Shown here: positions 2,986-21,564 of the stretch, piece by piece
How positions within the stretch are numbered: the first letter of the stretch is position 1
How the letters are laid out: each line of letters begins with the position of its first letter
From: Escherichia coli
GTDB taxonomy: Bacteria; Pseudomonadota; Gammaproteobacteria; Enterobacterales; Enterobacteriaceae
Assembly: GCF_050920415.1 (NCBI RefSeq)
Contig: NZ_CP169309.1
Reading direction: 5' to 3' (one strand)
DNA: 64,000 bases
The notes under the pieces: model-generated
Database searches by the model: none
Seen by the model: only the letters and a program-made list of their open reading frames with translations
What the model was told of the DNA's origin: nothing
Position numbers and translations under genes: made by a program

Positions 2986-3374
2986 GCCGGATAGGCTCCG
3001 TGTGGTAACTGAAAATGCGGTCCGTCTTTCAGGGTCTTCCAGTCGCCGCCCCATTCCACCGGAATATTCAGCTCCCGGCTGGCCTGTCTGAATGCTGCTG
3101 CGATTTTTTCGTACAGCGGCCATTCCCATGACACCTGGCTGCCGACATAAGCCACAACATCCACGGCATGCCCCGTAAGGTGGCGGCTGTTCATGGTCTG
3201 GCTCTTACCTGTGGCCACAAGTTGCTTCTGGCGGTAACGGCTGCGCAACCCTTCGGTGATACCAAAATCCACTTCCGAGATTTCCAGTGCCCGTCGGGTC
3301 ACTTTCACCAGATCAGGATTTACGCCCTGCAAATTCTTTTCGCTCCGGCTGCTGAATTTAAATGTGTTGCTCAT
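2982..3374 (-). CDS. endolysin, peptidase M15-type (L-alanyl-D-glutamate peptidase family)
   Basis: 130 aa with SRHLTGHAVD zinc-binding motif typical of M15 phage endolysins; sits between holin and spanins. Confidence 0.7.
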   Translation of the reverse strand: MSNTFKFSSRSEKNLQGVNPDLVKVTRRALEISEVDFGITEGLRSRYRQKQLVATGKSQTMNSRHLTGHAVDVVAYVGSQVSWEWPLYEKIAAAFRQASRELNIPVEWGGDWKTLKDGPHFQLPHGAYPA

Positions 3375-3694
3375 TCGTCCTTCTCCTTCACCCTGCGATT
3401 AAAGGCCGCAATAACCTTGTCGCGTGCTTTCTCTGCGCCCATAAAACCGATTGATGCGCCGATAAACGTCACGGCATCTTCAGGAAACCCGAAGAAGCGC
3501 AACGACCCGGCCACGGCCATGGCAAGAACGCCGCACGCCAGCGATCCCGTTACGGTCTGAACCAGTGTTCGTCCGTCATAAAGACTCATCAGCGCGGAAA
3601 TGCTGACTGCCGCGCCTACTGCATACACCGTTGGCAGGTGGTCAAAGAGCCACGCAATAACCTGCTCTGTGATCCCTGTTTGAATGGTGCTCAC
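3371..3694 (-). CDS. holin (GTG start)
   Basis: 107-aa product from GTG at 3694 with hydrophobic helices (AVGAAVSISALMSL, ACGVLAMAVAGSL); longer upstream ORF extension overlaps gene X and is rejected. Confidence 0.6.
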   Translation of the reverse strand: MSTIQTGITEQVIAWLFDHLPTVYAVGAAVSISALMSLYDGRTLVQTVTGSLACGVLAMAVAGSLRFFGFPEDAVTFIGASIGFMGAEKARDKVIAAFNRRVKEKDE

Positions 3695-3696
3695 TG

Positions 3697-3903
3697 CTAC
3701 TCCCCCCACAACTGAATCATTTCTCGTTTCTTCTTCTCCGGCTCCGGCATCTCCACGTCCTGCCCGGCGTCCAGAAATACCTGCTGACAGAGTCCGGGGT
3801 TGGCATCCAGCACCTTTTCGGTGACGCCCTGCGTCGTGCCGTAGTACCGGAAACAGAGCGAATCCACGGTGTCGCCTTCCAGTGCCTTCACTTTCATCAG
3901 CAC
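3697..3903 (-). CDS. tail protein X
   Basis: 68-aa ORF between L and the holin, same size and position as P2 gpX. Confidence 0.7.
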   Translation of the reverse strand: MLMKVKALEGDTVDSLCFRYYGTTQGVTEKVLDANPGLCQQVFLDAGQDVEMPEPEKKKREMIQLWGE

Positions 3904-4400
3904 AGCTCCGCAAAGATTCGCGGGCGGCGCAGAATGTCAGAGATGGCCCAGCTCACATCGCGCCACAAATCCGATGTCTGTATATCCAGTGCGTCCGCGC
4001 GGCGGTCGCCCTTATCCGTTGTGTCCGCATCGCGGTAACGCTCCAGAATCAGGGCGCGTGTGGCGGTATAAACGGCATTGCGCCAGTGCCAGAGATTGAC
4101 GCTTTCTCCGTTAATTACGGGTGCCGGAACATCGGCCAGCGTCTGATGGCCAGCCGCCTGTTGTTCCTGCTGCCACGCTTCCAGCTCGCGGGTAACGTGT
4201 GCCACGGCCCCGGTGGCGGTATGCAGCAGGCGGGAGGTGGTCACACGGCCCGGCAGTCGTATCGCCAGACGCAGCTCACGCAGCACAATATCCGGCCAGA
4301 ATGCGCCCGCTGAAATACGGGTATCACCATCATCGGTATCGGTGATGTCGTCCTCTGCGGGTCCGGGGTTGGTTCTGGCAACCATACTCATGGGGTTCAC
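3897..4400 (-). CDS. head completion/stabilisation protein L
   Basis: 167-aa ORF downstream of terminase M; P2 gpL position. Confidence 0.7.
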   Translation of the reverse strand: MNPMSMVARTNPGPAEDDITDTDDGDTRISAGAFWPDIVLRELRLAIRLPGRVTTSRLLHTATGAVAHVTRELEAWQQEQQAAGHQTLADVPAPVINGESVNLWHWRNAVYTATRALILERYRDADTTDKGDRRADALDIQTSDLWRDVSWAISDILRRPRIFAELC

Positions 4401-4492
4401 TCCTGAAAAAATCGGGCGGTGGGTGCGCGGTGTAAACGGTCACGGAGTCAAACCGGAACACCGCGCACGCCGCCCGCTGACGGGGTCAGTCG

Positions 4493-5293
4493 TTAACCGC
4501 GCTTCGCCTTCTGCGTCGCGGTGGTTTTTCGTGTTGCAGGCTTCCGCGTTGTTTTTTTACTTTTGCTGCTTTCGTCCTGCGTCTGCGGTGTGCTGGCATC
4601 TTCTGGTGCGGCTGCGGAATCAGCTTTCTTCAGGGCGCGGGAAAGGGTTGCAATCTCGCGTTTCACACCTGCGTTCGGGTTCAGGTGCATCGCTTCGCGC
4701 AGCAGCTTCAGTGATGAGGCCATGCTGTCCGCATCACTCAGGCCACGGCGGGCAAAGGCGCACGCCTTGCATAATTTGGCGCGCACTTCGTCCGGCATAT
4801 CCTGGTTGGCGACAATTTCCCAAAGTGTGTCCAGTGGTTCGATAAAGGTGGACAAATCCGCGTCGGCATCCGTCCCGGCCTGCGTCAGTACCGGGTTGCA
4901 GATTTCTTCGGTCAGTACCGTGGCAGCAGTACGGCCAAAGTTATCCGGCATGATGAGGTTGTGACGGACCACATACGCACCAATACGCAGCGCAAGCGGA
5001 AGATCGCCGCAGTCAATCGCCCACACCATCAGCGTGGCAATCACTTCGTCCTGCTGCCCGCCGTCAGCCTCCAGCGTTCCCTCAATCCAGCCGGAAAAAT
5101 CCGGCAACAACTCTTTTTTGATGGCGGCTTTCGCGCTTCTTGCCTGTACGCCCTTAAGCCGGGCCTGTGCCAGACGCAGACGATACAGCACCTCTTCATG
5201 CGCGGTACGCGCGGCGTGGTCCACGCCTTCATTCGCCCGGCCTGCGCGCTGTGCCATCACGTTCTGCCAGTGTTGCTGTGCAGGAGTAATCAT
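4493..5293 (-). CDS. terminase small (endonuclease) subunit M
   Basis: 266-aa ORF with basic Lys/Thr-rich C-terminal tail, between N and L as in P2. Confidence 0.7.
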   Translation of the reverse strand: MITPAQQHWQNVMAQRAGRANEGVDHAARTAHEEVLYRLRLAQARLKGVQARSAKAAIKKELLPDFSGWIEGTLEADGGQQDEVIATLMVWAIDCGDLPLALRIGAYVVRHNLIMPDNFGRTAATVLTEEICNPVLTQAGTDADADLSTFIEPLDTLWEIVANQDMPDEVRAKLCKACAFARRGLSDADSMASSLKLLREAMHLNPNAGVKREIATLSRALKKADSAAAPEDASTPQTQDESSKSKKTTRKPATRKTTATQKAKRG

Positions 5294-5338: not shown

Positions 5339-6391
5339 TTAGCTGTCGGCGAACTTCAGGCCAGTGACCATCGCGCACTTGCCATAGTCTTCAACGACAT
5401 AAGCGTCATTGATGGACTGGTAGGTGGCGATGCGGTTGTATTCCGGTTCGTCTTTCATCAGACGACGCATTGAACCTTTCTGCCAGTAAATCGACAGGTT
5501 GTTGAACGAGGTGATCAGCATCGTTGAATCCGGGAAGAACGGCGCAAGGAACACGCCCAGCCCGCCAATGGTGCGCGATGACAGAATGAGCTGCCCGGCG
5601 AGTAATTCCGCATTGGGATTCTGGCCGCTGATGCTGTTCAGCACGGGCAGACGCAGCGAGTTAAACAGGTTGCGCCCCATAATCACCACGAGGTCGTCAG
5701 CTTCCTTGTGCCATTCATCCAGCAGGGATGAGCGCGCGTCCTGTACCAGTGCATCAGCGTTCGCATACTTACCCGCGTGCGCCACGGTGTTGTCCATGTT
5801 ACGGGAGGTCAGCGTCACGTCATTCATAACGCGTTCGCTGGCGTCGGTTCTGATGTGCTCCAGCCAGCCCACGTTAACGTCCTGAAGCAACTTGTTGGTG
5901 CTGAAGTTAGACTCATCCGCGTGAGACGTGCCGTTGAAACCGATCATGATGCGGTCAAGTGCCACCTGTCGGGCAATCTGTGCGCTGATGCGGGACTGAA
6001 AATCAGGGTGTGCCGCCCAGGCATCAAGCTGCGGATATGAAATAAACGTGTCGTAGTTCACCTGTTCGCACTGGTATTTGCGGTTTTTCAGATCAACCAC
6101 GTTATTCGGGTTACGGCGTTTTGTGCCGTCATAACTGGTATTCGTGCGCGCAATCGGCCCGGTGGTATCCGGGAGGATTTTTTCGCCTTTCTGGTCGGTC
6201 ACGCCGATCACGTTAATTCTTTTTGTAAATTCGGTGCTTTCCTTTGAGGCGTTTTCAAAACGCTGCTGTACCGAGGGTTCCACGGTAAATCGCGATACCA
6301 GTGCGGAAACCGGGATATTGTTAAGCGACGCCTGCTGCGCCATATAGCAACCCAGCTTGTTGCGGGTAATATCTGACATCACCAGATTCAT
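5339..6391 (-). CDS. major capsid protein N
   Basis: 350-aa ORF between scaffold O and terminase M; P2 gpN-like size. Confidence 0.8.
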   Translation of the reverse strand: MNLVMSDITRNKLGCYMAQQASLNNIPVSALVSRFTVEPSVQQRFENASKESTEFTKRINVIGVTDQKGEKILPDTTGPIARTNTSYDGTKRRNPNNVVDLKNRKYQCEQVNYDTFISYPQLDAWAAHPDFQSRISAQIARQVALDRIMIGFNGTSHADESNFSTNKLLQDVNVGWLEHIRTDASERVMNDVTLTSRNMDNTVAHAGKYANADALVQDARSSLLDEWHKEADDLVVIMGRNLFNSLRLPVLNSISGQNPNAELLAGQLILSSRTIGGLGVFLAPFFPDSTMLITSFNNLSIYWQKGSMRRLMKDEPEYNRIATYQSINDAYVVEDYGKCAMVTGLKFADS

Positions 6392-6414
6392 AAAAAATTT
6401 GCTCCTTTGTCTTA

Positions 6415-7251
6415 TCAGAAGTCAGCCAGCTGGTCGGAGGCTGCGCCCGTTGCGGTGAACCGGTTCTGCGGATCGCCGTCCTGCGTGCGCAGTTTTTCCT
6501 TCAGTGCTGCCAGCTCTGTGGTCAGTGAAGTGATTTTCTGGCTGTCCTGCTGATGGCGGGTTTCCAGTGCATTAAAACGGTCGATAATGTCGGCCTGTGA
6601 CGTTGCGACGCCTTCCACCGCTTCCTGAATGCGGGAGAAACTGGCGTCATCCGCTTTGCGGCCACGGCCAATAATCCCCATTACGCGGTTAAACCACTGG
6701 GTGCCTTCTTCCTGGCGTTGTTCTGCCATTTCGATGATTTCAGACTCGATGGCTTCGGAGATAAGCGGTGCTTCACCCTGGACACTGTTGAACGTCATCA
6801 CCGCCTGACGTTGCTGTGCCGTGAATTTCAGGCGCTCAGTGCCCAGGCTTGCCGGGGTGTCGGTCATCGCCAGCCCGACCAGATAGGCGCGCCCGTTAAC
6901 GGAGAACTGCGGGTGCAGTTCGATACTGGAATAGATTTTCTTGCCGTCAGCGACAAGCTGCTTCATGCGCTCGGTCGGTTCGATTTCTGCATACAGCGCA
7001 GTACGTCCGGCCAGCGGGCCTTCCGTAATATCTTCCGTACTCAGCGCGGTGACATCGCCCATTGCGGAAAATTCGCTTGACGGGCATGGCGAGAGATAGT
7101 GCTCAACGTTCACGCGGGCAGCGTAAACATCCGGGTTGAAGTTCTCGGCGGCTTCACGCAGATGTACCGGACTGATTTCGCGGCCATCAACAGTTGATCC
7201 GGAGACAGCCACGCGAAACTTTTTGCGGGATGTCTTTTTTTCATTAGCCAT
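6415..7251 (-). CDS. capsid scaffolding protein O
   Basis: Start at MANEKKTSRKKFRVAVSG resembles recalled P2 gpO N-terminus; an alternative in-frame ATG lies at 7284. Confidence 0.7.
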   Translation of the reverse strand: MANEKKTSRKKFRVAVSGSTVDGREISPVHLREAAENFNPDVYAARVNVEHYLSPCPSSEFSAMGDVTALSTEDITEGPLAGRTALYAEIEPTERMKQLVADGKKIYSSIELHPQFSVNGRAYLVGLAMTDTPASLGTERLKFTAQQRQAVMTFNSVQGEAPLISEAIESEIIEMAEQRQEEGTQWFNRVMGIIGRGRKADDASFSRIQEAVEGVATSQADIIDRFNALETRHQQDSQKITSLTTELAALKEKLRTQDGDPQNRFTATGAASDQLADF

Positions 7252-7405: not shown

Positions 7406-9157
7406 ATGATTCAGGACGCTTTTGTGCGCCAGCGTGCGCGGCAACTTTACTGGCAGGGTTATCCGCCCGCAGAAATATCACGTCTGATGGGAATAAACCC
7501 GAACACGATTTATGCGTGGAAAAAACGCGACCAGTGGGATGAAACGCCACCCGTGCAGCGTGTCACGCAGTCCATCGATGCGCGCCTCATCCAGCTCACT
7601 GAAAAACAGAATAAAACAGGTGGTGACTTCAAGGAAATAGACCTGCTGACCCGGCAGCTTAAAAAACTGCATGATGGCCAGCCGGATGCGACGGCCACAG
7701 GAAAGAAAGGCCGGGCGAAAAAGCTTAAAAATCATTTCACGCCGGAACAGATTGCCGCACTGCGGGAAAAAATCATCAGCAGGCTGGAGTGGCATCAGCG
7801 GGGCTGGTTTGACTCCCTGACCCTTTGCAGGGAAGCAGGGATACGTAACAGGATGATCCTGAAATCCCGACAGATTGGGGCGACCTGGTATTTTGCACAG
7901 GAAGCGCTGCTGATGGCGCTGCGTGACGATGTGGCGCAACCTTACCAGCGTAACCAGATTTTTTTGTCTGCGTCGCGTCGTCAGGCGTTCCAGTTTAAAA
8001 GCATTATTCAGAAGGCCGCGGCTGAAGTTGATGTGGAGTTGAAAGGGGGCGATAAAATCATCCTCTCCAACGGCGCAGAGCTGCATTTTCTCGGCACTTC
8101 TGCTGCGTCGGCACAGTCCTATACGGGCAATTTTTATTTTGATGAATTTTTCTGGGTCAGTCGCTTTGCTGAACTGCGCAAGGTGGCTGGCGCTATGGCA
8201 ACCCTCAGCGGACTGCGGCGCACCTACTTCTCCACGCCATCCACCGAAACGCACGAGGCATACGCCTACTGGAACGGCGACCGCTGGAACGAGAAAAAGG
8301 CCACGCATAAACGCCAGCGTTTTTCTGTGGACTGGAAAACGCTGCATAACGGGCTTATCTGCCCTGACCGGACGTGGCGGCAAATTGTCACGCTGGAAGA
8401 TGTGGTTAATCACGGCTGGAAACACACCGATATCGACGAAATTCGTGATGAAAACACCGAAGACGAGTTCCTCAATCTCTATATGTGTGAGTTTGTCCGC
8501 GAAGGGGAATCGGCATTTAACCTGAATATCCTGATTGGCTGCGGTGTTGACGGATACGACGACTGGAAAGACTGGAAACCTTTTGCTCCCCGCCCGATGG
8601 GGAATCGTCCGGTATGGATTGGGTATGACGCAAACGGCAGCAGTGGCAACGGCGACAGCGGCGCTGTGTCCGTGGTGGTTCCTCCGTCTGTTCCTGGTGG
8701 CCGTTTTCGAACGGTGGAGACGCGACGCGCTCAGGGGCTGGAGTTTGAAGAACAGGCCAGAGTCATTGAAGAGTTCACGTGTCGCTACAACGTGGAACAC
8801 ATCGGCATTGATGTGACGGGCGGGAACGGGGAGGCTGTTTATCAGATAGTGAAACGGTTTTTCCCTGCCGCTATTCCGTACACCTTCACGCTGTCATCAA
8901 AACGGTCGCTGGTACTGAAAATGCTGCAAATAATGCGTGCCGGGCGGTGGGAATACGATCGCGCCGAACGCGAGCTGGTCGCGGCCTTTAACGCCGTGCG
9001 TAAGGTGAAAACACCGGGCGGCTTTATCACTTACGAAACGGACCGCGCGAGGGGGATCAGCCACGGCGACCTTGCGTGGGCAACCATGCTTGCTGTCATT
9101 AACGAACCAATTGGCGGCGAAGGAGAAAACGAGCGTTTCACGGTTATGGAGTTCTGA
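7406..9157 (+). CDS. terminase large (ATPase) subunit P
   Basis: 583-aa ORF divergent from O, P2 gpP-like size and position. Confidence 0.8.
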   Translation: MIQDAFVRQRARQLYWQGYPPAEISRLMGINPNTIYAWKKRDQWDETPPVQRVTQSIDARLIQLTEKQNKTGGDFKEIDLLTRQLKKLHDGQPDATATGKKGRAKKLKNHFTPEQIAALREKIISRLEWHQRGWFDSLTLCREAGIRNRMILKSRQIGATWYFAQEALLMALRDDVAQPYQRNQIFLSASRRQAFQFKSIIQKAAAEVDVELKGGDKIILSNGAELHFLGTSAASAQSYTGNFYFDEFFWVSRFAELRKVAGAMATLSGLRRTYFSTPSTETHEAYAYWNGDRWNEKKATHKRQRFSVDWKTLHNGLICPDRTWRQIVTLEDVVNHGWKHTDIDEIRDENTEDEFLNLYMCEFVREGESAFNLNILIGCGVDGYDDWKDWKPFAPRPMGNRPVWIGYDANGSSGNGDSGAVSVVVPPSVPGGRFRTVETRRAQGLEFEEQARVIEEFTCRYNVEHIGIDVTGGNGEAVYQIVKRFFPAAIPYTFTLSSKRSLVLKMLQIMRAGRWEYDRAERELVAAFNAVRKVKTPGGFITYETDRARGISHGDLAWATMLAVINEPIGGEGENERFTVMEF

Positions 9158-10203
9158 TGAGCAGAAAAAATAAAAAAGTGCGCATGAGTTCACGCATTGA
9201 TCTCGCTGATGCGCTCAGGAAAGAATCATCGCTCAGTGCATTCACATTTGATGGTCCTTATCGCCTGACCGGGCATGACCTGCTGGACAATATGTACTGT
9301 GCTGATAACGGGCGGTGGTATGAAACCCCGGTGGACTGGTACGGTCTGGCAAGAGCCGCCCGGCAAACGTCCTGGCATCAGTCTGCGCTTTACTTTAAGC
9401 GCAATGTATTGCTCGGTTGCTACATCCCGCACCCGCTGCTTTCCCGGCAGGATTTCTCGGCGCTGGCGCTGGACTGGTTTGTGTTCGGTAACGCATTCCT
9501 TGAGCTTCGAAGCAATATGCTCGGCGAACCGCTTAAATTACGGCACGCCCTGGCGAAATACATGCGACGCGGAAGCGATCTTGAATCATGGTGGTATGTG
9601 CAGGATGGCAAGGATGCGTTTCAGTTTCGCCCAGGCAAAGTGTGCCACCTGATGAATCCGGACATTAACCAGGAAATCTACGGCATGCCGGAATATCTCG
9701 GCGCATTACTCTCGGCCAGCCTGTCTCATTCGGCGGACATGTTCAGAAAACTGTATTACGACAACGGATCCCACGCCGGGTGCATCATCTACATCGGTGC
9801 AGCGCAGGTAAACCGCGAAAGCATGGACTCCCTGAAAGAAACGCTACAGGGTGCGCGTGGTGGTGGTGCGTTTAAAAACGTGCTCATTCATGCGCCCAAC
9901 GGGGGCAAAGAGGGGGTGCAAATTTTGCCGTTCCAGCAGATCACCGCAAAGGATGAGTTCATGAATGTTAAGGCGGCATCCCGTGATGATGTGCTGGCTG
10001 CGCACCGCGTTCCGCCGCAACTGATGGGGGCGATGCCGGGTGAAAAAAGTGCGTTTGGTGATGTGGAGAAGGCCGCGCGGGTTTACGCAATTAACGAGCT
10101 GATGCCCGTCATGGAGGCCATGAAGCATATCAATGACTGGCTTGGCGAAGAGGTGCTCCGCTTTAACCCTTACGCACTGCTGGACACCCAGCCCACATCC
10201 TGA
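9157..10203 (+). CDS. portal protein Q
   Basis: 348-aa ORF directly downstream of P, start overlapping P stop; P2 gpQ-like size. Confidence 0.8.
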   Translation: MSRKNKKVRMSSRIDLADALRKESSLSAFTFDGPYRLTGHDLLDNMYCADNGRWYETPVDWYGLARAARQTSWHQSALYFKRNVLLGCYIPHPLLSRQDFSALALDWFVFGNAFLELRSNMLGEPLKLRHALAKYMRRGSDLESWWYVQDGKDAFQFRPGKVCHLMNPDINQEIYGMPEYLGALLSASLSHSADMFRKLYYDNGSHAGCIIYIGAAQVNRESMDSLKETLQGARGGGAFKNVLIHAPNGGKEGVQILPFQQITAKDEFMNVKAASRDDVLAAHRVPPQLMGAMPGEKSAFGDVEKAARVYAINELMPVMEAMKHINDWLGEEVLRFNPYALLDTQPTS

Positions 10204-10694
10204 CGCGCTTCGCTTGTCTGCTGCTTCGCCGGGGCATAAAAAATTTATGCCCCGACTCTCCAGCTCCTGTATCAGTCAGATAATTTCACGACGCCTTCCA
10301 GTTTATCGCCACTATCGACAGTCAGACTCTTACGCAATCCCACTGCGCTGACTGCATGTTCTCGCCGCCTCAGTGCGATTTTGACGGCCTTATCTGCCAC
10401 CCCGTCAAATCAAAAGCCCTCACGTCTTTTTCACGCTCAGCGTGAGAAATACAGCCATTCTGTTGTGTCGCTGCGACATCGTTCAGGGGATGCTATTTAC
10501 CCCCTGAAACGCGGGCTGTTCCCCCGTCACCTGCGCGTAGAAAAAGCGCGTTTTTTTGTGCACGCACGGATCCTTGACGGATCCAGCCGCCACGCGGGCC
10601 GGAAGGGCAAAAAGTCGTTCAAAAAAATTGTGCAAATTTGTGCACTATTGTGCATTGAAATAAACGCCCTGGAAGAGGGCGTTTTGGCTCATTT
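10204..10694. other. non-coding region in the position of P2 cos / packaging site
   Basis: About 490 bp without credible ORF between portal Q and the accessory operon; contains three TGTGCA repeats (10631-10659) and a bidirectional hairpin cgccctggaagagggcg with flanking T/A runs. Cohesive-end sequence itself not identified. Confidence 0.35.
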
Positions 10695-10955
10695 CTATAG
10701 CTTTGATGCAGGCTGGGCTAGATGTAAGGGTTGGACATACCAGCCTTTTGATAACCAACTCTCTGCAACATCTTTACTCCTTGTTATTGCTGGTATTCCG
10801 ATGCCGTTATTTACATGCATCCATGCTACTGGCTCTGCTTCCAGCGATGCCAGTGCAATTTCATAAGCACGGCGTTCAATATTGTCTCGAACGTCCAGGC
10901 TGCCGATGCGCTCTTTGATTTCTTTAATCAGTTCTTTGTCGGTGAACGTTGTCAT
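10695..10955 (-). CDS. hypothetical protein (accessory operon, last gene)
   Basis: 86-aa ORF, no recognisable domain. Confidence 0.45.
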   Translation of the reverse strand: MTTFTDKELIKEIKERIGSLDVRDNIERRAYEIALASLEAEPVAWMHVNNGIGIPAITRSKDVAESWLSKGWYVQPLHLAQPASKL

Positions 10956-10965
10956 GTGTTAGTCC

Positions 10966-11229
10966 TTATCCTGCTGTGCTTTCAACTGATGAGGGGAACA
11001 AAATCTTTTCATCAAATCCGGCATTCATATCATGGACAGCAACACACCAATCCATCGACGAACGATTATCAAGAGCCTCCATGATTTCATCCATGCGGCG
11101 TAGGTCATACAGGTAAATGTTTTTATCGCCAATGGTGTAAAAACCAATTTTTTTCGGTGATGGACAGCGATCAAGAACGTCCTGTAATTCGTTCAACCAT
11201 GCCTGTTCTTTTTTTGTCAACGTTGCCAT
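10966..11229 (-). CDS. hypothetical protein (accessory operon)
   Basis: 87-aa product from internal Met MATLTKKEQAW; start trimmed to avoid overlap with upstream gene. Confidence 0.4.
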   Translation of the reverse strand: MATLTKKEQAWLNELQDVLDRCPSPKKIGFYTIGDKNIYLYDLRRMDEIMEALDNRSSMDWCVAVHDMNAGFDEKILFPSSVESTAG

Positions 11230-11230
11230 A

Positions 11231-11449
11231 TCAGTTTTCCTTATACGGATTAATTTTATTGTGCAATGTGTTGAACGACGCCCATACCACGTCGTTATAC
11301 AATTCAATAACTGGCTCAATTATTTTCCCGATTGCCCAGATAAAAATTAGCGGGGATATCGGTATCATCAACACGATAAACAGAATGAGAAACAGAAATT
11401 CTATTGCTCTACTCTTTCGCGGATAGTTTTTCCTGAATAGTGTAGGCAC
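11231..11449 (-). CDS. small membrane protein (accessory operon)
   Basis: 72 aa, GTG start preceded by AAGGAG; hydrophobic core FLFLILFIVLMIPISPLIFIWAIG; AT-rich. Confidence 0.45.
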   Translation of the reverse strand: MPTLFRKNYPRKSRAIEFLFLILFIVLMIPISPLIFIWAIGKIIEPVIELYNDVVWASFNTLHNKINPYKEN

Positions 11450-11450
11450 C

Positions 11451-11645
11451 TCACTCTCCTTTAATGCGAAAGTGGTTTTTCCAGCGGTTTTGCGCCGCGC
11501 TGGGCTTTTTGCAAAAACCGCAATCCATCATCCCGTAATATTTCATCAACCCCATTCGTCGGTTGCTGAGTCTCACCCACTGCCATACGCCTGGATCGTT
11601 TCTGCGAACTAACAGAATCTTTGCTTTACGGTTGTTGGTTGCCAT
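11451..11645 (-). CDS. small basic protein (accessory operon)
   Basis: 64 aa from ATG at 11645, preceded by AAGGGAGG Shine-Dalgarno. Confidence 0.45.
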   Translation of the reverse strand: MATNNRKAKILLVRRNDPGVWQWVRLSNRRMGLMKYYGMMDCGFCKKPSAAQNRWKNHFRIKGE

Positions 11646-11961
11646 ATCCCCCTCCCTTGATACCAATATTTACAACATGGCAAGCCTCTTTGAGCACCCA
11701 GTCAACAGCGTCTTTCCATGCTCCGGTTTCGGCTGGCGGATTCTCACGCTTTACCAGTTCATAGAAACGTACTGCTCTAACCAGTCCATCTGACGGTTTT
11801 GCCTGTAGTGCAGCCTGAGCTATGCGGTATGCCTGGAGTATACGGGCGTCGTTGATATCCATTCCGAACGGAATTTCTGATGATTGTGATTCTGCATCTT
11901 CAAGCCTGGCAATTTCTTTACGTAAGAAGTATTTCAACTCTTGTTTTTGTTTTCTGTTCAT
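11626..11961 (-). CDS. hypothetical protein (accessory operon)
   Basis: 111 aa; ATGA start/stop overlap with upstream zinc-finger gene; AAGGGA Shine-Dalgarno. Confidence 0.5.
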
Positions 11962-12290
11962 GCGTTTTTTCCCTTTTTGTCTGTCACTTCTCTCCTGATA
12001 ATTTCATTGCACAAATCCACGCACTCATTGCAGATGTAAACAGACGGTCCAGCAATCACCTTTGTGACTTCGTACTGGGATTTATTGCAGAAGCTGCAAT
12101 AAATCGTCTCCTCACCTGAAGTCCATGTTTTGCTGGTTTCGCCAGACATCAGTTGTTTGAGGTCTTTTTCACGACGAAGAACTATCTGGCCACATTCAGC
12201 TATTTTTTGGATGTTGACATTTTCTTCTTTCGCCAGCGCTTCCATCCGCTCAATCAGTCGCTGCGCTTTTTCTCTGTCAATGTGTTGCAT
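11958..12290 (-). CDS. small protein with C-terminal ClpX-type C4 zinc-finger domain
   Basis: Segment [40 protein letters not shown] closely matches the recalled N-terminal zinc-binding domain of ClpX ([40 protein letters not shown]); no AAA+ domain follows. AAGGGGGA Shine-Dalgarno. Confidence 0.6.
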
Positions 12291-12353
12291 TGTGTCCCCC
12301 TTGTTTATGCTCCCGGGTTAAAGTCATCAGGGCGGATGCGCCCTGATGTTGTG

Positions 12354-12665
12354 TTATTCGGGAAATAACGCCCGGATATTTCCGGCCATCTGACTGGTTA
12401 TCTGTGCGGCTGATACTGGCTGTGACGCGGGGCGTTCTGTCCTGGGTTGTGTCACTGATAACGCCTCATCATCAGCCCATGCAGCCAGTCGGTAAGCCTC
12501 TGCCGGATTCATTTTCAGTAGTGCCAGCCCGGCCAGAAAAGCCACGCGTTGACCACTTTTGCGGGCTTCTGGTGTAAGGCTGTCCAGCCAGGCGCATGCT
12601 TCGCCTTCGTTCTTGACGGCGGCGGGCTTCAGATAGAAACTTATCCGTCTGGTTGGTGTCGTCAT
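12354..12665 (-). CDS. ParR-like centromere-binding protein (ribbon-helix-helix)
   Basis: 103 aa; RRISFYLKP...WLDSL...FLAGLALL...NIRALFPE resembles recalled plasmid R1 ParR (RRTIAFKLNP...TLDSI...LTAGLALY...ILRSLFPKE); directly downstream of the ParM-like gene with AAGGAG Shine-Dalgarno. Confidence 0.6.
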   Translation of the reverse strand: MTTPTRRISFYLKPAAVKNEGEACAWLDSLTPEARKSGQRVAFLAGLALLKMNPAEAYRLAAWADDEALSVTQPRTERPASQPVSAAQITSQMAGNIRALFPE

Positions 12666-12669
12666 TGGC

Positions 12670-13629
12670 TTACTCCTTGTCCATTGCGTACAGCCCATTA
12701 ACCAGAGCAAACTGTGGCACCCCGTCCGCGATGAAAGTCGCATTAACTCCGCAGGCTTCGCGGATAGCGGGTGCCACAATCTCCGCCCCGCCACCGACAA
12801 CCATCACCCGCCCGTAACCCGAAAAACCCGCCAGCGCGCGGATCACGCGTTGTTTCAGTGTTTCTTCCTTTTCACGAATAACCGCCATCAGGCTGGCGTA
12901 ATGCGCGTCATTGTGGATGTGCTGGCGCAGCCAGGCTTCATCATGGCGATGTTCAATAATGGTATTGGCGATGTGGTGACTGGTGCGCATACCGTTAGTG
13001 GCCATCACCGACAGCACGGCATCGGCCATCAGTGAAACACCTACGTGTGGATCGCAAAACACCTGGCTGATACCTGCCAGTTGTCCCTGAACCTTTGCCA
13101 CATCCAGCGTGGTTCCGCCCAAATCCACAATCAGCAGGGATTCAAACGGACTCATGTCAGCCAGTGCCTTAAAGCCTGCCGGAATGGATTCAGGCATAAC
13201 CCGCACGTTACGGATAGTGAATGCCTCACCGTTCTGGTACTCCACCGGGCGCATAACGTTCGCTTTTTTGCGGTTGATGTTGGCCATGTCCGGCTGTGCG
13301 TTTGTGTCGAAATACTCGCTCAGTGGCAGGGTGACAACCACATCCACCTCCTGTGGCGTGATGCCTGATTTGACCAGCGCGTGATGAATGGCAATGACAT
13401 TCACATCGCTGTATTGGTATTGCGTGTCGGTCGTCTGGACAAAGCGATCGCTGACCGGATCAAAACCATAGCGCACGCCATCAAGCATGTAGTTCGCGGG
13501 CTGCGTGCCACCGAACGGCGCAGACCATTCCGACTTGAAGCTGTTCGGGCTGATGGCGTTGCGGCGTTCGCCGTTCTCAGTCCATGCCAGCTTGATGTTG
13601 GTGGAGCCGTCGTCGATACAAATTTTCAT
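12670..13629 (-). CDS. ParM/StbA-like actin-fold segregation ATPase
   Basis: 319 aa with the ParM nucleotide-binding motifs: MKICIDDGSTNIKLAW (phosphate 1), IVDLGGTTLDV (connect/adenosine), VMVVGGGAEI (phosphate 2). Confidence 0.8.
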   Translation of the reverse strand: MKICIDDGSTNIKLAWTENGERRNAISPNSFKSEWSAPFGGTQPANYMLDGVRYGFDPVSDRFVQTTDTQYQYSDVNVIAIHHALVKSGITPQEVDVVVTLPLSEYFDTNAQPDMANINRKKANVMRPVEYQNGEAFTIRNVRVMPESIPAGFKALADMSPFESLLIVDLGGTTLDVAKVQGQLAGISQVFCDPHVGVSLMADAVLSVMATNGMRTSHHIANTIIEHRHDEAWLRQHIHNDAHYASLMAVIREKEETLKQRVIRALAGFSGYGRVMVVGGGAEIVAPAIREACGVNATFIADGVPQFALVNGLYAMDKE

Positions 13630-13660
13630 GTCGCTTTTCCTTATGTTGATTAATTAATCG

Positions 13661-13760
13661 TTTACGGGATTCTGAAATCCCGTTTTTGCCTGCTTTGTGC
13701 GCGCTTCATATATCACTGCGCGTTTTTTGCTCATTTACGGGATTCGTGAGTCCCGTTTCT
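13661..13760. repeat. two direct copies of a 27-bp hairpin-containing repeat upstream of the ParM-like gene
   Basis: TTTACGGGATTCTGAAATCCCGTTTTT (13661-13687) and TTTACGGGATTCGTGAGTCCCGTTTCT (13734-13760), 22/27 identical, each an ACGGGA/TCCCGT inverted repeat; the second lies inside the 3' end of gene A. Confidence 0.5.
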
Positions 13761-16528
13761 GTCTGTTTTTTGTTTCCGCTGGTCAGGCCACCCCGCAGCA
13801 GGTCTGCTTTGCGGCTGGCGCGTTCAGTGGTTTCACTGATTCTCTGTGCGTGCTCTGCGTCGCGGATGGCGCGCAGCATGTCAGAAAGCACAGTAACGGG
13901 TGTTTTCATGGTGTTCTGGTCCTGCTGAAGTGTGGATGCCAGGCGTGCGGCGGCTTCAGGGTCTGATGCCCCCAGCTGTGCCAGATAGCTGGCGACCGGG
14001 TTATGGCGGATCTCCGTGCTGCTTACGCCATGATTACGGCTCAGGCGCTGCCAGAGCTGCGTGATTCGGCTGTCCGGGCGGGTATCCGGTTTGCGTACAA
14101 TTTCAAATCCCTGCGGTGCAATGATGCTGCCGTCAACGTACAGACTGCCGCCCCGTAACAGGTGCTGCATCTGTTGTTCACCGATATGCAGGCCGAGAGA
14201 TTCAGCAGACTCCCGCCATTCTTTAGCGAGTAATTCGTGGTTATCAGGCAAAGGCCGCTGCTGTTTGCGGCTCTGTGTCCAGCTCTGCATTTCATCACTG
14301 CTGTTTTTTGCCTGTTTGTCACGAAGCGAACGCATCAGCGCCCGGCGTTCGTGCCGTTTCAGTGAGCGCATCCATTCGTTCACTTCAACGCCGTCAGGGA
14401 GCTGCGGCCACGGTGCTGGCCGTTCTTCCGGCTGTTCTGTCCCGTTGTTGTCCGTTTCCTGTGCACGGGGACAGTTATTGCCACGAGTCCAAGGGGCGGC
14501 AGGGCCGCCCTGAAGGTCAAAACCATTTTCGTGGGCGTTGTCTCCCGGTTCTGGTTTACGTCTTACCAGCTTCCAGTTATCCGGATGCGTGCACACACGG
14601 GAGGATTCCCCGATGAGTGGTGACCAGATCCCGTAAATCTGTACGCTCTGTTCGCCGTAATCGTTCAGCTCATCTGCGAGGTCGTAGGCGGTGCGAATCA
14701 GGTAGTCCTTGCGTGGAACAAGCACGCCACCCTGTTTTTCAATGTAGGTGGCAAAACACCCGGCATCGGCGGCAGCGAGTACCGCATCCATTGCATCATC
14801 TTTCAGCCGTTGCGGGCCTTCCGGATTGCGTGCCATCTGGCTGGCAAGGCGGCGCAGTTCACGCCACACCTGACGGGAGGGGATGCCAAAGAACTGGAAC
14901 TGACGGACCCGGTGAAGGCGCGCCCAGCCGATGGCGCGCTCCACGCTCTCGGCCATTGATTTTCCGGTTTCGTGGTCAACGCGTGGCTTGCCCGTTTTCG
15001 GGTCGATGCCATCCACGGCGCGGCTGTCCAGGTTCTTTCCGATGTAGGTGGCGATGTAGCTGGTTGGTGTGCCTTTTGAGCCGTCGACATACTCCGCCTT
15101 AAAACGCGGAGTTATGTCATCGCCCAGCTCGTGGCGGTCCTCCTGAATGGCAATATCGCAGACGTGGGACACGATGGTTTCAATCTCGTCCGGATGTGCA
15201 AAGACCATCATATGCCAGTGCACAGTGCCGTCATGGTGAGGCTCCACCGTGCGGATGCCATACCAGCGCAGGCCGTCGCGGTTCAGTTTTTTGCGGACCG
15301 CCGCAAAAAACGTGTTAACCAGGTAATCGCTGGAGTCGCGCATGGTGGCCCCGTTCCATTTGGGGTTCGGATGACCGTTCTCCGTTGTTGCGTGGTATTT
15401 TGACGGGCAGGTGACGGTCAGAAACACCGCTCTGTCGCCACGGGCTTCGGCCAGAAGTTCCAGTCCCTTCATGGTGGCCATCATTTCTGCCTTACGGTGA
15501 ACCGGGTTACTTACTCCCGCGTAATACACCGTCTCGAGATCAATCGTGAACCCGTCTTCATTTTCCAGCATGAAACTTTTCAGGAAATCGCGTGTTTTCT
15601 CGCGCTGTGCGCGAAACTCGCTTAACGCGTCCTGGCTCAGATAGGGGGATGTTTTTCTGGAAACCAGACAGGCGGCGCGGAGTTGTTCTTCCCGCCACTC
15701 ACAACGTAACAGCCACAGTTTGCGTTTCCACCATTCCGCACAGGTCAAGCGAAGGATTGCGCCCGGCAGCAGCTCCGTGTCCGGTTCGTTCCTCCGGTCT
15801 TTGTCTGTTGTCAGTGCGTCATAATGTGGAGGCATGGCGTGCAGGTGTAACGCCATGCGGGCCAGCATCTGATAAGCCTTCAGGGTTACATCCATGGTCA
15901 GCTCGCCATCAGTCGCGCCAAAGCCATCGCAGAGTTTTTCGAAGGTGCTGCTGAACATCGCCGCCGTCATGGTGGCCAGCGTCTGTATCTGGTGTTTGTT
16001 GAGCTGCGGCAGGTAAAGCAAATCGTCCAGGCGTTCGCGTCCGGCAAGGGAGCGATAACCCGGTGTCAGCCAGCGGTGGTCGGTGCGGTCCAGACGTTCG
16101 AATATTTTGCGCAGGGTTCCGCACGCGTAGCGTTCAGCCTGCCAGCTCTTTTTGCCTTTCCGGCGATCGGCTTCCTGTTTTTTGCGCAGGAAGGAGAGGT
16201 GGCGAATAAGCGGATCGCGCAGATAGGACGGCAGCAGGCGCAGCGAGGCCATGGCTTCATCCACCGCGCCACGTGCCTGTTTTCTGGCGTCTCCTGCCAG
16301 TGTGATGGTTTTGTCCTGTTTTTCCTGTGCGTCCAGGCTTTTATTAATCAGGTTGCCCAGCGGCGTGGCGGAGAACGCCGCATCAGCCATTTCCTGGCGG
16401 CGCTCGTTCTCTGCCCGGTAGGCATCCAGCCAGGAGGAAAGCGCGGATTCAGGAGCGGGGATCCCCGTTCCTTCACGCCCCACTGCGTGGCGCGGTTGTT
16501 GCCAGTCCCTGATGTACTCTGCCGTCAT
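13706..16528 (-). CDS. replication initiation protein A (rolling-circle nicking endonuclease, P2 gpA-like)
   Basis: 940 aa; HUH-type motif region GTVHWHMMVF and tyrosine motif TSYIATYIGK; position between early genes and accessory region. Confidence 0.8.
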   Translation of the reverse strand: MTAEYIRDWQQPRHAVGREGTGIPAPESALSSWLDAYRAENERRQEMADAAFSATPLGNLINKSLDAQEKQDKTITLAGDARKQARGAVDEAMASLRLLPSYLRDPLIRHLSFLRKKQEADRRKGKKSWQAERYACGTLRKIFERLDRTDHRWLTPGYRSLAGRERLDDLLYLPQLNKHQIQTLATMTAAMFSSTFEKLCDGFGATDGELTMDVTLKAYQMLARMALHLHAMPPHYDALTTDKDRRNEPDTELLPGAILRLTCAEWWKRKLWLLRCEWREEQLRAACLVSRKTSPYLSQDALSEFRAQREKTRDFLKSFMLENEDGFTIDLETVYYAGVSNPVHRKAEMMATMKGLELLAEARGDRAVFLTVTCPSKYHATTENGHPNPKWNGATMRDSSDYLVNTFFAAVRKKLNRDGLRWYGIRTVEPHHDGTVHWHMMVFAHPDEIETIVSHVCDIAIQEDRHELGDDITPRFKAEYVDGSKGTPTSYIATYIGKNLDSRAVDGIDPKTGKPRVDHETGKSMAESVERAIGWARLHRVRQFQFFGIPSRQVWRELRRLASQMARNPEGPQRLKDDAMDAVLAAADAGCFATYIEKQGGVLVPRKDYLIRTAYDLADELNDYGEQSVQIYGIWSPLIGESSRVCTHPDNWKLVRRKPEPGDNAHENGFDLQGGPAAPWTRGNNCPRAQETDNNGTEQPEERPAPWPQLPDGVEVNEWMRSLKRHERRALMRSLRDKQAKNSSDEMQSWTQSRKQQRPLPDNHELLAKEWRESAESLGLHIGEQQMQHLLRGGSLYVDGSIIAPQGFEIVRKPDTRPDSRITQLWQRLSRNHGVSSTEIRHNPVASYLAQLGASDPEAAARLASTLQQDQNTMKTPVTVLSDMLRAIRDAEHAQRISETTERASRKADLLRGGLTSGNKKQTETGLTNPVNEQKTRSDI

Positions 16529-19109: not shown

Positions 19110-19514
19110 ATGAAAAATGATATTGGTCAGCGGTTGCGTGAGGAAAGGGAAAGATTGGGACTTAGTCAAGTTGCCATGAGCGACATTGGTGGAGTCAAAA
19201 AGCTAACTCAGCTTAGATATGAGAAAGGAGATAGCTTTCCTGATGCTGCGTATTTGGCAGCGCTGTCTCGTTTTGGCCTTGATGTTCAGTATGTTGTGTT
19301 GGGAATTCACTCACCTGAAACTTATAACGATGATGAGCAGGAGTTGATTACTCGCTTTCGAGCAGCTTCGTTAGATGTGAAAAACGCGGTGATTGGGGCT
19401 TTAAAAGGTGCGATCAGTGAAAAGGAAACTCAGCCATCAGGACGTGAGTTAAATATTTCTGGTGGTAATAACCGTATTGCTGGTCGTGACTATAACGAAA
19501 CTAAGGGTAGGTGA
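19110..19514 (+). CDS. CI-like immunity repressor, HTH XRE family
   Basis: 134 aa; N-terminal IGQRLREERERLGLSQVAMSDIGGVKKLTQLRYEKG is a classic XRE helix-turn-helix; transcribed toward the integrase as in 186. Confidence 0.75.
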   Translation: MKNDIGQRLREERERLGLSQVAMSDIGGVKKLTQLRYEKGDSFPDAAYLAALSRFGLDVQYVVLGIHSPETYNDDEQELITRFRAASLDVKNAVIGALKGAISEKETQPSGRELNISGGNNRIAGRDYNETKGR

Positions 19515-19529: not shown

Positions 19530-20180
19530 ATGGCCGTCAACTCAAACGGTTCAAACAATCGCGTTGCTGGGCGTGATTTTCACGAAAAGAATATTCAGAT
19601 AGAGCGATATGATGGTTCTCATACCGTCAATATCGCAATCCCTTCGAATAATGATGATGACGATCGCCCTTTGCTTAAGGCTCAGCGTAAGGAGCTAAAT
19701 AGTTTGGTTGCTGCTATTGCAGAAGCTAGCAATACTGAAGCGTTTATTATTTGGCAAAAAGTACATGCTGAGATTGGTGTAGCTGGTATTGATGATATGA
19801 CAGTAAATCAATATAAAACAGCGGAGAGTTTTCTGCATGCAATGCTTGAGCGATGTAAAGATCATGATGCCTGTAAGGCTCTTGTAAGTTTATTACTACG
19901 TAACAGTGAAGACTGTGGACTTCGACAAAAACTTCTGCGGTATTGCCATATCAATTTCGGTACAGGACGTTTAAACGATCTTACTCGTTCTCAGTTACAG
20001 TCTGCATTGTCGTGGTTAGAGCAACAATCGGCATCAAGCCACACAGAGAGTTCGACCTTACCAGAAGTCCGACTTCGTGCTTCAGAATTAATCCGACTTT
20101 ATCCAAAAGAAATAATATTCTTTATCTGCGTAGGGGGTTTGGTAGGCGGTGTCATTTCTAGGGTGCTTTTTAATTTGTAA
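19530..20180 (+). CDS. cargo protein, C-terminally membrane-anchored, unknown function
   Basis: 216 aa, GGGAGG Shine-Dalgarno; C-terminal TM helix IIFFICVGGLVGGVISRVLF; N-terminus repeats a peptide motif found at the repressor C-terminus. Confidence 0.55.
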   Translation: MAVNSNGSNNRVAGRDFHEKNIQIERYDGSHTVNIAIPSNNDDDDRPLLKAQRKELNSLVAAIAEASNTEAFIIWQKVHAEIGVAGIDDMTVNQYKTAESFLHAMLERCKDHDACKALVSLLLRNSEDCGLRQKLLRYCHINFGTGRLNDLTRSQLQSALSWLEQQSASSHTESSTLPEVRLRASELIRLYPKEIIFFICVGGLVGGVISRVLFNL

Positions 20181-20209: not shown

Positions 20210-20557
20210 ATGAAAGTAAAAAAGGTTCAACTATTAGTTACTTTTTTATCTATGTTTTCTTTTTCCGCCGTCGCAATGCCTTTTAAAACTATTGAACGTG
20301 AGAGTTTCAATGGGGTATGGCCATTTAATACTGATGAGGTTCAATTACAGTGTCTTGATGGTAATCCTTATGTGATGAATTTTGACGATAATAAGTTATA
20401 TGCACTTACAGGTTTGGCTCGAATAAAAGGTAAAACATTTGGTGCGTTACCGTTAGATAACAATAATCCATTTTGGCTAGATAATGATGCCGCCCCAGGG
20501 TTAAAAAAGAGTCTGGGGGATGTCACTAAGGCTGCATTTGATTTATGTGATAAGTAA
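20210..20557 (+). CDS. cargo protein, secreted/periplasmic, unknown function
   Basis: 115 aa with signal peptide MKVKKVQLLVTFLSMFSFSAVA, no lipobox, two Cys in mature part; strongly AT-rich coding sequence. Confidence 0.6.
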   Translation: MKVKKVQLLVTFLSMFSFSAVAMPFKTIERESFNGVWPFNTDEVQLQCLDGNPYVMNFDDNKLYALTGLARIKGKTFGALPLDNNNPFWLDNDAAPGLKKSLGDVTKAAFDLCDK

Positions 20558-20562
20558 CTAAA

Positions 20563-21564
20563 ATGTCGGTTCGTAAGATTCCATCAGGTAAATGGCTTTG
20601 CGAATGTTATCCCTACGGGGCATCGGGAAAACGCATTCGTAAACAGTTTGCGACAAAAAGTGAGGCGCTCTCTTATGAGCGCCGTTTAATGAATAGTAGA
20701 GTTGGAGACGAGTTTCAAGATGGTTCTGGTCCTCGTCTTTCTGAGTTGATTGCTCGTTGGTTTGAGATGTACGGTAAAACCTTGTCCTCTGGTGCAGAGC
20801 GCAAAGTCAAACTTGAGGCGATTTGTTCCAGGCTGGGAGATCCATTTGCTTCTCAGTTTGACAAAAATATGTTTGCTACTTATCGGGAAAGAAGGCTATC
20901 AGGAGAATGGAATCCCAAGGGGAAGAAAAAACTTAGTGAAGCAACCGTTAATCGCGAGCAGTCATATCTACATGCTGTTTTTGCCGAACTGAAGCGCCTT
21001 GGGGAGTGGTCTGGTGAAAACCCCCTGACTGGTATTCGCAAGTTTCGTGAGGAAGAAAAGGAACTGGCGTTTCTGTATGTAGATGAGATTGAACGCCTTC
21101 TGATTGCGTGTGATGAGTCACGGAATAAAGATTTGGGGGTTGTTGTCCGTATTGGGCTTGCGACTGGTGCTCGGTGGAGTGAAGCAGAAGGATTAAAGCA
21201 ATCTCAAGTACTGCCCGGTCGAATCACATTTGTTAAAACTAAAGGAAAGAAGAACCGCACTGTACCGATTTCACCTCAATTGCAGGCTATGCTTCCTAAA
21301 AAACGAGGAGCGCTATTTTCACCATGTTATGAGGCTTTTGACGCTGCAATTAAGAGAGCGAAGATCGAGCTTCCTGATGGGCAATTAACTCATGTGCTAC
21401 GTCACACGTTTGCCAGTCATTTTATGATGCGGGGCGGAAATATTCTTGTGTTGCAAAAAATACTGGGGCATAGCGATATAAAAATGACTATGCGTTATGC
21501 GCATTTTGCTCCAGGTCATTTAGAGGCTGCTGTTGAATTGAACCCTTTTGACAATAGAGGGTAA
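20563..21564 (+). CDS. int: prophage integrase (tyrosine recombinase)
   Basis: 333 aa; catalytic motifs HVLRHTFASHF and TMRYAH; last prophage gene before the tRNA fragment. Confidence 0.85.
   Translation: MSVRKIPSGKWLCECYPYGASGKRIRKQFATKSEALSYERRLMNSRVGDEFQDGSGPRLSELIARWFEMYGKTLSSGAERKVKLEAICSRLGDPFASQFDKNMFATYRERRLSGEWNPKGKKKLSEATVNREQSYLHAVFAELKRLGEWSGENPLTGIRKFREEEKELAFLYVDEIERLLIACDESRNKDLGVVVRIGLATGARWSEAEGLKQSQVLPGRITFVKTKGKKNRTVPISPQLQAMLPKKRGALFSPCYEAFDAAIKRAKIELPDGQLTHVLRHTFASHFMMRGGNILVLQKILGHSDIKMTMRYAHFAPGHLEAAVELNPFDNRG

Follow-up and report, generated by a model that had tools for sequence, protein, structure and literature searches.

Five small accessory genes in the gpA-portal hotspot of a P88-type Escherichia coli prophage, with relatives in lambdoid early regions

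In P2-like phages the cos-proximal interval between the replication gene gpA and the portal gene is a published hotspot, in which P2 itself carries tin and old (PMC9122126; Rousset et al. 2022), and in which anti-phage systems abound (PMC9122126). In about 19% of P2-like elements the hotspot is occupied by genes of unknown function alone, and many genes of this sort have been predicted or shown to be antiviral (bioRxiv 10.64898/2026.02.27.708500). The present analysis concerns this interval in a 64,000-nucleotide stretch of Escherichia coli DNA (contig NZ_CP169309.1, hereafter the window), where a P88-type prophage (Xuanwuvirus, Peduoviridae, P2 family) carries five small open reading frames (ORF1 to ORF5) at 10695-11961 on the minus strand, directly behind a gene for a ClpX C4-type zinc finger (ZnF) resembling the ClpX zinc-binding domain (ZBD). 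Lying between gpA and the portal gene, close to cos, and varying among relatives, the five ORFs answer to the definition of cargo of the P2-like gpA-gpQ hotspot. With the tin/old locus of P2 they share the position between replication gene and portal as well as a high variability between related prophages; however, the cargo described here is homologous neither to tin or old nor to any PADLOC model, runs in the same direction as the early operon, lacks a recognisable promoter of its own, and belongs to families typical of lytic early regions. We propose, with a probability of roughly 0.6, that ORF1-5 are independent early-lytic accessory cassettes, presumably expressed after derepression and each with a presumed host target of its own.

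Further counterparts reside in lambdoid phages. Genes belonging to the exo-xis region are transcribed early from pL, and deletion of this region from phage Φ24B raises lysogenisation and leaves the lytic yield unchanged (PMC8614690; PMC10789677), while for the distal part of the region in Shiga toxin (Stx) phages the description goes no further than a variable set of uncharacterised genes (PMC8614690). The exo-xis proteins of lambda (Ea22, Ea8.5, Orf63, Orf61, Orf60a, Orf73) are small, non-essential and early, and bias the lysis-lysogeny decision; they share with ORF1-5 the type of genomic neighbourhood but, in searches of Pfam and of PDB chains, no sequence similarity. Such similarity is found in Stx phage 933W, whose segment between ea22 (L0069) and xis is 93-96% identical at the nucleotide level to ORF2, ORF3 and the leader of ORF5. 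Within its L0065-L0068 region the values are 93.3% for ORF2, 92.7% for ORF3/L0067 (92% of amino acids) and 95.7% for the first ~40 codons of ORF5/L0065, the genes follow one another in the same order, and both sets lie in an early operon, a probable one in the prophage studied here. On the other hand, the host element here is of the P2 family, with the genes placed after parMR next to cos, an unrelated L0066 occupies the place of ORF4, and ORF5 is devoid of the DUF551 C-terminus of L0065. Both 933W and about 30 of 80 viral contigs with ORF4 place these genes among the variable genes of the lambdoid exo-xis/ea region. A similarity of kind only links ORF1-5 to the Gnarl proteins and other small products of accessory genes (Silas et al. 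2025), which measure 40-90 amino acids, stem from hyper-variable phage regions and target central pathways of the host, O-antigen synthesis among them; peptides of the five ORFs are absent from the accessory-gene libraries of Silas et al. (supplementary data of both papers).

Gene layout and conservation

Reading frames of at least 60 codons on a single strand cover 99% of 10695-11961, whereas shuffled sequences (n = 1000) averaged 11% and never exceeded 59%. Gaps along ZnF and ORF1-5 amount to -4, -20, +1, +1 and +10 nucleotides, and the start of ORF1 overlaps the stop of ZnF (ATGA), these two genes being translationally coupled. A Shine-Dalgarno match lies 5-9 nucleotides ahead of every start (AAGGGA, GGAGGGGG, AAGGAG, AAGGA and AAGGA for ORF1 to ORF5, respectively), and the same five coding sequences appear in the Prokaryotic Genome Annotation Pipeline (PGAP) annotation of a 99% identical prophage. 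The original prediction, made from the letters of the window, had proposed five same-strand ORFs of 111, 64, 72, 87 and 86 amino acids following the zinc-finger gene, each with a plausible ribosome-binding site and together forming the distal end of an operon. Sizes, strand, position and ribosome-binding sites are all borne out, as is the distal location, ORF1-5 closing the early-gene run with a terminator-like hairpin beyond. The further statement that this sequence is more AT-rich than the flanking phage genes holds in part. The segment has a GC content of 44.0%, clearly lower than the rest of the prophage (55-58% in ParR, ParM and gpA, 54% in terminase and portal), but the low-GC island begins with ZnF rather than with ORF1: because the ZnF gene is equally AT-rich (43.5%), the edge of the island falls between ParR and ZnF.

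All five ORFs match PHROG families, with E between 1e-26 and 1e-51, and every one of these families is of unknown function. Comparison with alleles at other loci shows substitutions dominated by the third codon position in all five, and ratios of non-synonymous to synonymous differences (pN/pS) of about 0.05-0.3 for ORF2-5 (Table 1). The frames are thus conserved in related elements, as the prediction of genuine small genes implied, and for this reason the ORFs are to be regarded as real genes; they are under purifying selection. Catalogues already list all five as hypothetical-protein families, and RefSeq contains identical proteins.

A mosaic of exchangeable cassettes

Among 5426 complete E. 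coli genomes, to which all genome counts refer, all five ORFs occur together in five, part of the segment in 2187, the ZnF-ORF1 pair in 71, and at least 80% of the gpA-portal interval in 37. The locus is therefore a rare combination of common parts in a known hotspot. In a comparison of related prophages the junctions of similarity coincide with gene boundaries. Common to all relatives are 10204-10654 and the sequence from 12351 onward, the position at which homology to Shae_phiSM resumes, and other Xuanwuviruses carry a wholly different cargo after parR. UTI89 departs only in 11234-11651, where an XF1762-family gene replaces ORF2 and ORF3; P88 is without 10722-11651 and keeps no more than the final 9 codons of ORF5, its gp20 being a fusion of ORF1 with the last eight of them; and PhiR44_2 is without 10670-10961 and hence without ORF5. 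The adjacency of ZnF and ORF1 is kept in all three. The five ORFs are independent, swappable cassettes and not one system.

The ease with which these small genes move between unrelated phage families is apparent from the 93-96% nucleotide identity to 933W, from ORF4 homologues with 63-72% amino acid identity in Chivirus and Avunavirus, and from a segment of 108 bp with 90.7% identity in ORF1. The last of these is a match between 6374-6481 of Avunavirus 19-1-2, a virulent member of the Vequintavirinae, and window positions 11684-11791, encoding the C-terminal module of ORF1, and it implies a recent exchange between virulent and temperate phages.

The free-standing ZnF product belongs to phrog_6797 and matches the NCBIfam model of the ClpX N-terminal region with E 2e-13, a score far below the family cutoff. 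In 933W the gene L0063 (1762-2073), a neighbour of xis, shows a comparable CxxC...CxxC arrangement, and mimics of the ClpX ZBD may therefore be a recurring early accessory gene.

The individual proteins

In a Pfam search of the five ORFs only DUF4014 was matched, NCBIfam returned nothing for them except a spurious ValRS fragment for ORF5, and sequence and profile searches against PDB chains gave no match with E below 0.6. The DUF4014 match (PF13198, E 3.2e-24) belongs to ORF3 and spans model positions 2-71 of 72; the protein also matches phrog_1832 (E 6e-45) and has a pN/pS of about 0.2-0.3, and no papers on DUF4014 were found in a literature search. Following a basic N-terminus, residues 19-37 form a hydrophobic stretch with a 19-residue Kyte-Doolittle mean of 2.97, by which ORF3 is a single-pass membrane protein, predicted N-in, in agreement with the original expectation of one membrane-embedded product in the cluster. 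Salmonella phage ε15 gp46 (NP_848254) is 54% identical to ORF3 over the full 72 residues, has the single transmembrane helix in common with it, and is likewise encoded among Ead/Eae/DUF551-type genes. It formerly bore the label 'acetyltransferase inhibitor', which was copied to phage g341c, whereas RefSeq now gives another, odd product name. This homology to a proposed O-acetyltransferase inhibitor is the sole functional lead at the locus, and it stays a proposal, since the proposed ε15 inhibitors of the AT3 O-acetyltransferase have never been investigated according to a review (PMC9558356).

ORF4 (phrog_1714) is acidic, with an isoelectric point (pI) of 4.7, and is predicted to be a compact alpha/beta protein; its structure model has a predicted local distance difference test score (pLDDT) of 92.5 and no known fold relative. 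The length of the family is constant at 87 amino acids down to ~35% identity across Gammaproteobacteria, and its C-terminal tail, FPSxVESTAG-COOH, is near-invariant. The 80 viral contigs mentioned above carry ORF4 at 97% amino acid identity or more, in the lambdoid nin region in ~30 cases (a setting of DnaC-like ... DUF977 ... hokD, DUF968), in the lambdoid ea region in another ~30 (between ea22 and xis/int) and in P2-like hotspots in ~8, and the gene is co-oriented with early genes in every one of them. The homologues from Chivirus and Avunavirus are found among EaA/Ea22-type small genes, in Avunavirus downstream of the DNA polymerase gene; together with Orf-87 of ST64T they are members of the ORF4 family (61-72% amino acid identity) of equal length, the difference being that some of them reside in virulent phages. 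In Chivirus FSL SP-030 (3001-4863) the homologue directly precedes a gene for 237 amino acids and a PAPS-reductase ('NinC') gene, and a Salmonella entry (AFDB A0A606XM42) has the ORF4 family fused to a DGQHR-domain protein. The notion that ORF4 and 933W L0066 are divergent alleles of one gene was rejected at an hhalign probability of 1%.

ORF2 is very basic (pI 11.0), has a strong Shine-Dalgarno sequence, overlaps ORF1 by 20 nucleotides, and matches phrog_1380 and phrog_12350 (E 1e-39); its pooled substitutions are distributed over the three codon positions as 6/10/41. Homologues have invariant basic termini, including KPSAAQNRWKNH, and a highly variable middle of 30 residues, which two of them (P0246 and P0247) read in another frame, one that the window likewise has open at 11461-11586. 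The homologue in 933W (AF125520), of ~62 amino acids at ~3763-3951 on the minus strand between L0068 and L0069, was originally unannotated. A zinc-binding role for ORF2 was considered and rejected, its two cysteines not being conserved.

Two modules each make up ORF1 and ORF5, which belong to a combinatorial Ea-type family. The predicted helical ORF1 matches phrog_26213 (E 2e-27) and phrog_660, and its residues 56-103 form a module that ends many Ea-type phage proteins of 62-333 amino acids. ORF5, which matches phrog_5117, phrog_660 and phrog_60, combines an N-terminal helical leader (residues 1-47) with a beta module of small size (PVAW...PLxxAQP). Proteins of 55-333 amino acids begin with this leader, and ORF5 represents the modular EaA/DUF551-type proteins in minimal form. 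Neither ORF1 nor ORF5 matched any Pfam model up to E 10, Ead_Ea22 (PF13935) and DUF551 (PF04448) included; they share only flanking modules with the proteins that carry these domains.

Expression, probable role and neighbouring features

On the minus strand the order of genes is small early genes, gpA, parM, parR, ZnF and ORF1-5, and since the early genes are all co-oriented over ~8 kb, ORF1-5 form the 3' end of the run. In the near-identical FDAARGOS_1059 prophage all genes from the one adjacent to the repressor through ORF5 also occupy one strand. The hairpin following ORF5 (-20.6 kcal/mol, z -5.0, with 0 of 200 shuffles as stable) would close the early operon ahead of the cos region. Location on one strand and tight packing would fit an early operon, and the second hairpin, in the parR-ZnF gap, could stop transcripts from upstream; it scores as a terminator on the plus strand, has a weak U-tract only on the coding strand, and coincides with the boundary between conserved backbone and variable cargo. 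A promoter scan found no sigma-70-like promoter upstream of ZnF and the cluster, the P2 late-promoter motif (TGT-N12-ACA) was not found ahead of the cluster, and an Rfam scan of the region gave no non-coding RNA above chance.

A role in lytic growth rather than in the lysogen is suggested by the homologues in lambdoid early operons (ea, nin), which are repressed, and by the presence of ORF4 in virulent phages as well. According to the mechanism that we favour, cassettes of the lambdoid early-left (ea/exo-xis) and nin type would have been moved by recombination at gene boundaries into the P88-like gpA-portal hotspot. Their expression would await derepression and proceed from the 3' tail of a long early transcript running from a repressor-proximal promoter through the small early genes, gpA, parMR and ZnF to ORF1-5, with translation coupled via overlapping or abutting stops and starts, and the transcript would end at the 10657-10695 hairpin. 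Each protein would then act singly on a host target during lytic development, in host takeover or counter-defence: ORF3 would insert in the inner membrane and probably bind a membrane enzyme or transporter, ORF4 would be a small acidic globular binder, and ORF2 a basic peptide. Several observations weigh against this proposal. The locus is a proven defence hotspot; the host targets and activities of all five families are putative; the middle of ORF2 is poorly constrained and frame-shifted in some homologues; and the structure model of ORF1 and ORF5, obtained by joining the two into one query and pairing the rows of homologues artificially, is of low confidence (pLDDT 56). In addition, if the hairpin at 12325-12348 stops transcripts from parMR, an internal promoter would be required for the cargo, and a weak one may exist ahead of it.

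The position invites the alternative that ORF1-5 are exclusion or defence cargo expressed in the lysogen, like tin and old of P2, with ORF3, for instance, blocking superinfection or altering the cell surface. The gpA-portal hotspot is rich in anti-phage genes (PMC9122126), many of its unknown genes have been predicted or shown to be antiviral (PMC9122126; bioRxiv 10.64898/2026.02.27.708500), the base composition is foreign, and the former label of ε15 gp46 would describe a lysogenic-conversion function. That label is a proposal only (PMC9558356), however, and in PADLOC-DB v2 there was no significant match for the five ORFs, ZnF, ParR or ParM, the best E being 0.025 (ORF1). No promoter-like site precedes the genes, the five do not co-occur, and their close homologues belong to pL and pR early operons, repressed in lysogens, or to virulent phages that are never lysogenic, all of which makes expression as lysogenic defence cargo unlikely. 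Cargo of the P2-type defence hotspot is not all defence.

The original prediction had thought of toxins, of exclusion factors or of regulators for an effector nearby. This guess found no support in PADLOC, NCBIfam or toxin families, and the five genes rarely co-occur. A toxin-antitoxin or addiction pair could be imagined in the small hydrophobic ORF3 as membrane toxin and the acidic ORF4 directly downstream of it, and a regulatory role in ORF1 as a partner of the ZnF effector, to which it is coupled by the ATGA overlap and which it accompanies in P88, UTI89 and PhiR44_2. Yet ORF4 occurs without ORF3 in about half of the 80 loci, the ORF3 homologue of 933W is followed by the unrelated L0066, and no toxin or antitoxin family was matched in NCBIfam or PADLOC, while the C-terminal module of ORF1 is widespread without any ZnF gene; such an arrangement appears quite improbable, and ORF3/ORF4 as a toxin-antitoxin pair was rejected on co-occurrence, the two being apart in many loci. 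Hardly credible is the idea that the ORFs are functionless hitch-hikers, recombination debris between useful sequences. It would accommodate the mosaic junctions, the truncated or fused variants in databases, the constraint on ORF1, which is only weak in some comparisons, and the variable middle of ORF2, but it is countered by the third-position bias and low pN/pS of all five ORFs, by the constant 87-residue length of ORF4 across Gammaproteobacteria, and by a Shine-Dalgarno sequence at every start.

There is a slim chance that the low-GC cargo (ZnF and ORF1-5) includes one or more new effectors in conflicts of phages with their hosts or with each other, the candidates being ORF3 and ORF4, acting in surface modification or counter-defence. 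On this reading ORF3 may inhibit an enzyme of the host envelope, for instance an O-antigen acetyltransferase, and thereby change surface receptors, while the acidic orphan-fold protein ORF4, whose conservation extends over temperate and virulent phages, may inhibit a defence or a core pathway of the host in a broad manner. ORF4, a high-confidence orphan fold widespread in phages of Gammaproteobacteria, and ORF3, as a DUF4014 protein, are reasonable targets for a functional screen; taken alone, the findings neither open nor settle any long-standing question.

Table 1. Coordinates of the cluster and of neighbouring prophage features in the window, with pN and pS of the five ORFs
Feature	Position	Strand	Remarks	pN	pS
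Terminase	7406-9157	+
Portal	9157-10203	+
Intrinsic-terminator-like hairpin + UUUAUUU	10657-10695	-	directly after ORF5 stop
ORF5	10695-10955	-	86 amino acids, ATG start	0.05-0.085	0.43-0.55
ORF4	10966-11229	-	87 amino acids, ATG start	0.01	0.17-0.21
ORF3	11231-11449	-	72 amino acids, GTG start	0.04-0.075	0.18-0.27
ORF2	11451-11645	-	64 amino acids, ATG start	0.03-0.05	0.11-0.35
ORF1	11626-11961	-	111 amino acids, ATG start	0.012-0.06	0.07-0.10
ClpX C4-type zinc-finger (ZBD-like) gene, ZnF	11958-12290	-	110 amino acids, directly upstream of ORF1
GC-rich 10-bp hairpin in 63-nucleotide parR-ZnF gap	12325-12348	unassigned	-22.9 kcal/mol, z -4.8
gpA (replication endonuclease gene)	13706-16528	-
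Helix-turn-helix (HTH) repressor	19110-19514
Integrase	20563-21564

Some features of the surrounding prophage may be added. A partition module of actin-like ParM and ParR (12354-13629) lies inside this integrating P2-family prophage, and parMR is present in 1277 of the 5426 genomes, almost always on the chromosome. Two copies of a 42-nucleotide direct repeat, 79% identical (13658-13699 and 13731-13772), sit at the 3' end of gpA and just upstream of parM, each with a ACGGGATTC...GAATCCCGT hairpin; on the plus strand they have the form of terminators, a hairpin followed by a T-run, and they might also serve ParR as a parC-like centromere. The repressor and integrase genes adjoin the host genes yecA and tyrP. 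Between repressor and integrase, 19530-20180 encodes a protein of 216 amino acids that weakly resembles the flagellar regulator Flk (E 8e-16, well short of the family cutoff), and 20210-20557 an ORF of 115 amino acids, in an interval where a near-identical genome annotates a 'membrane protein'; both are candidate lysogenic-conversion genes.

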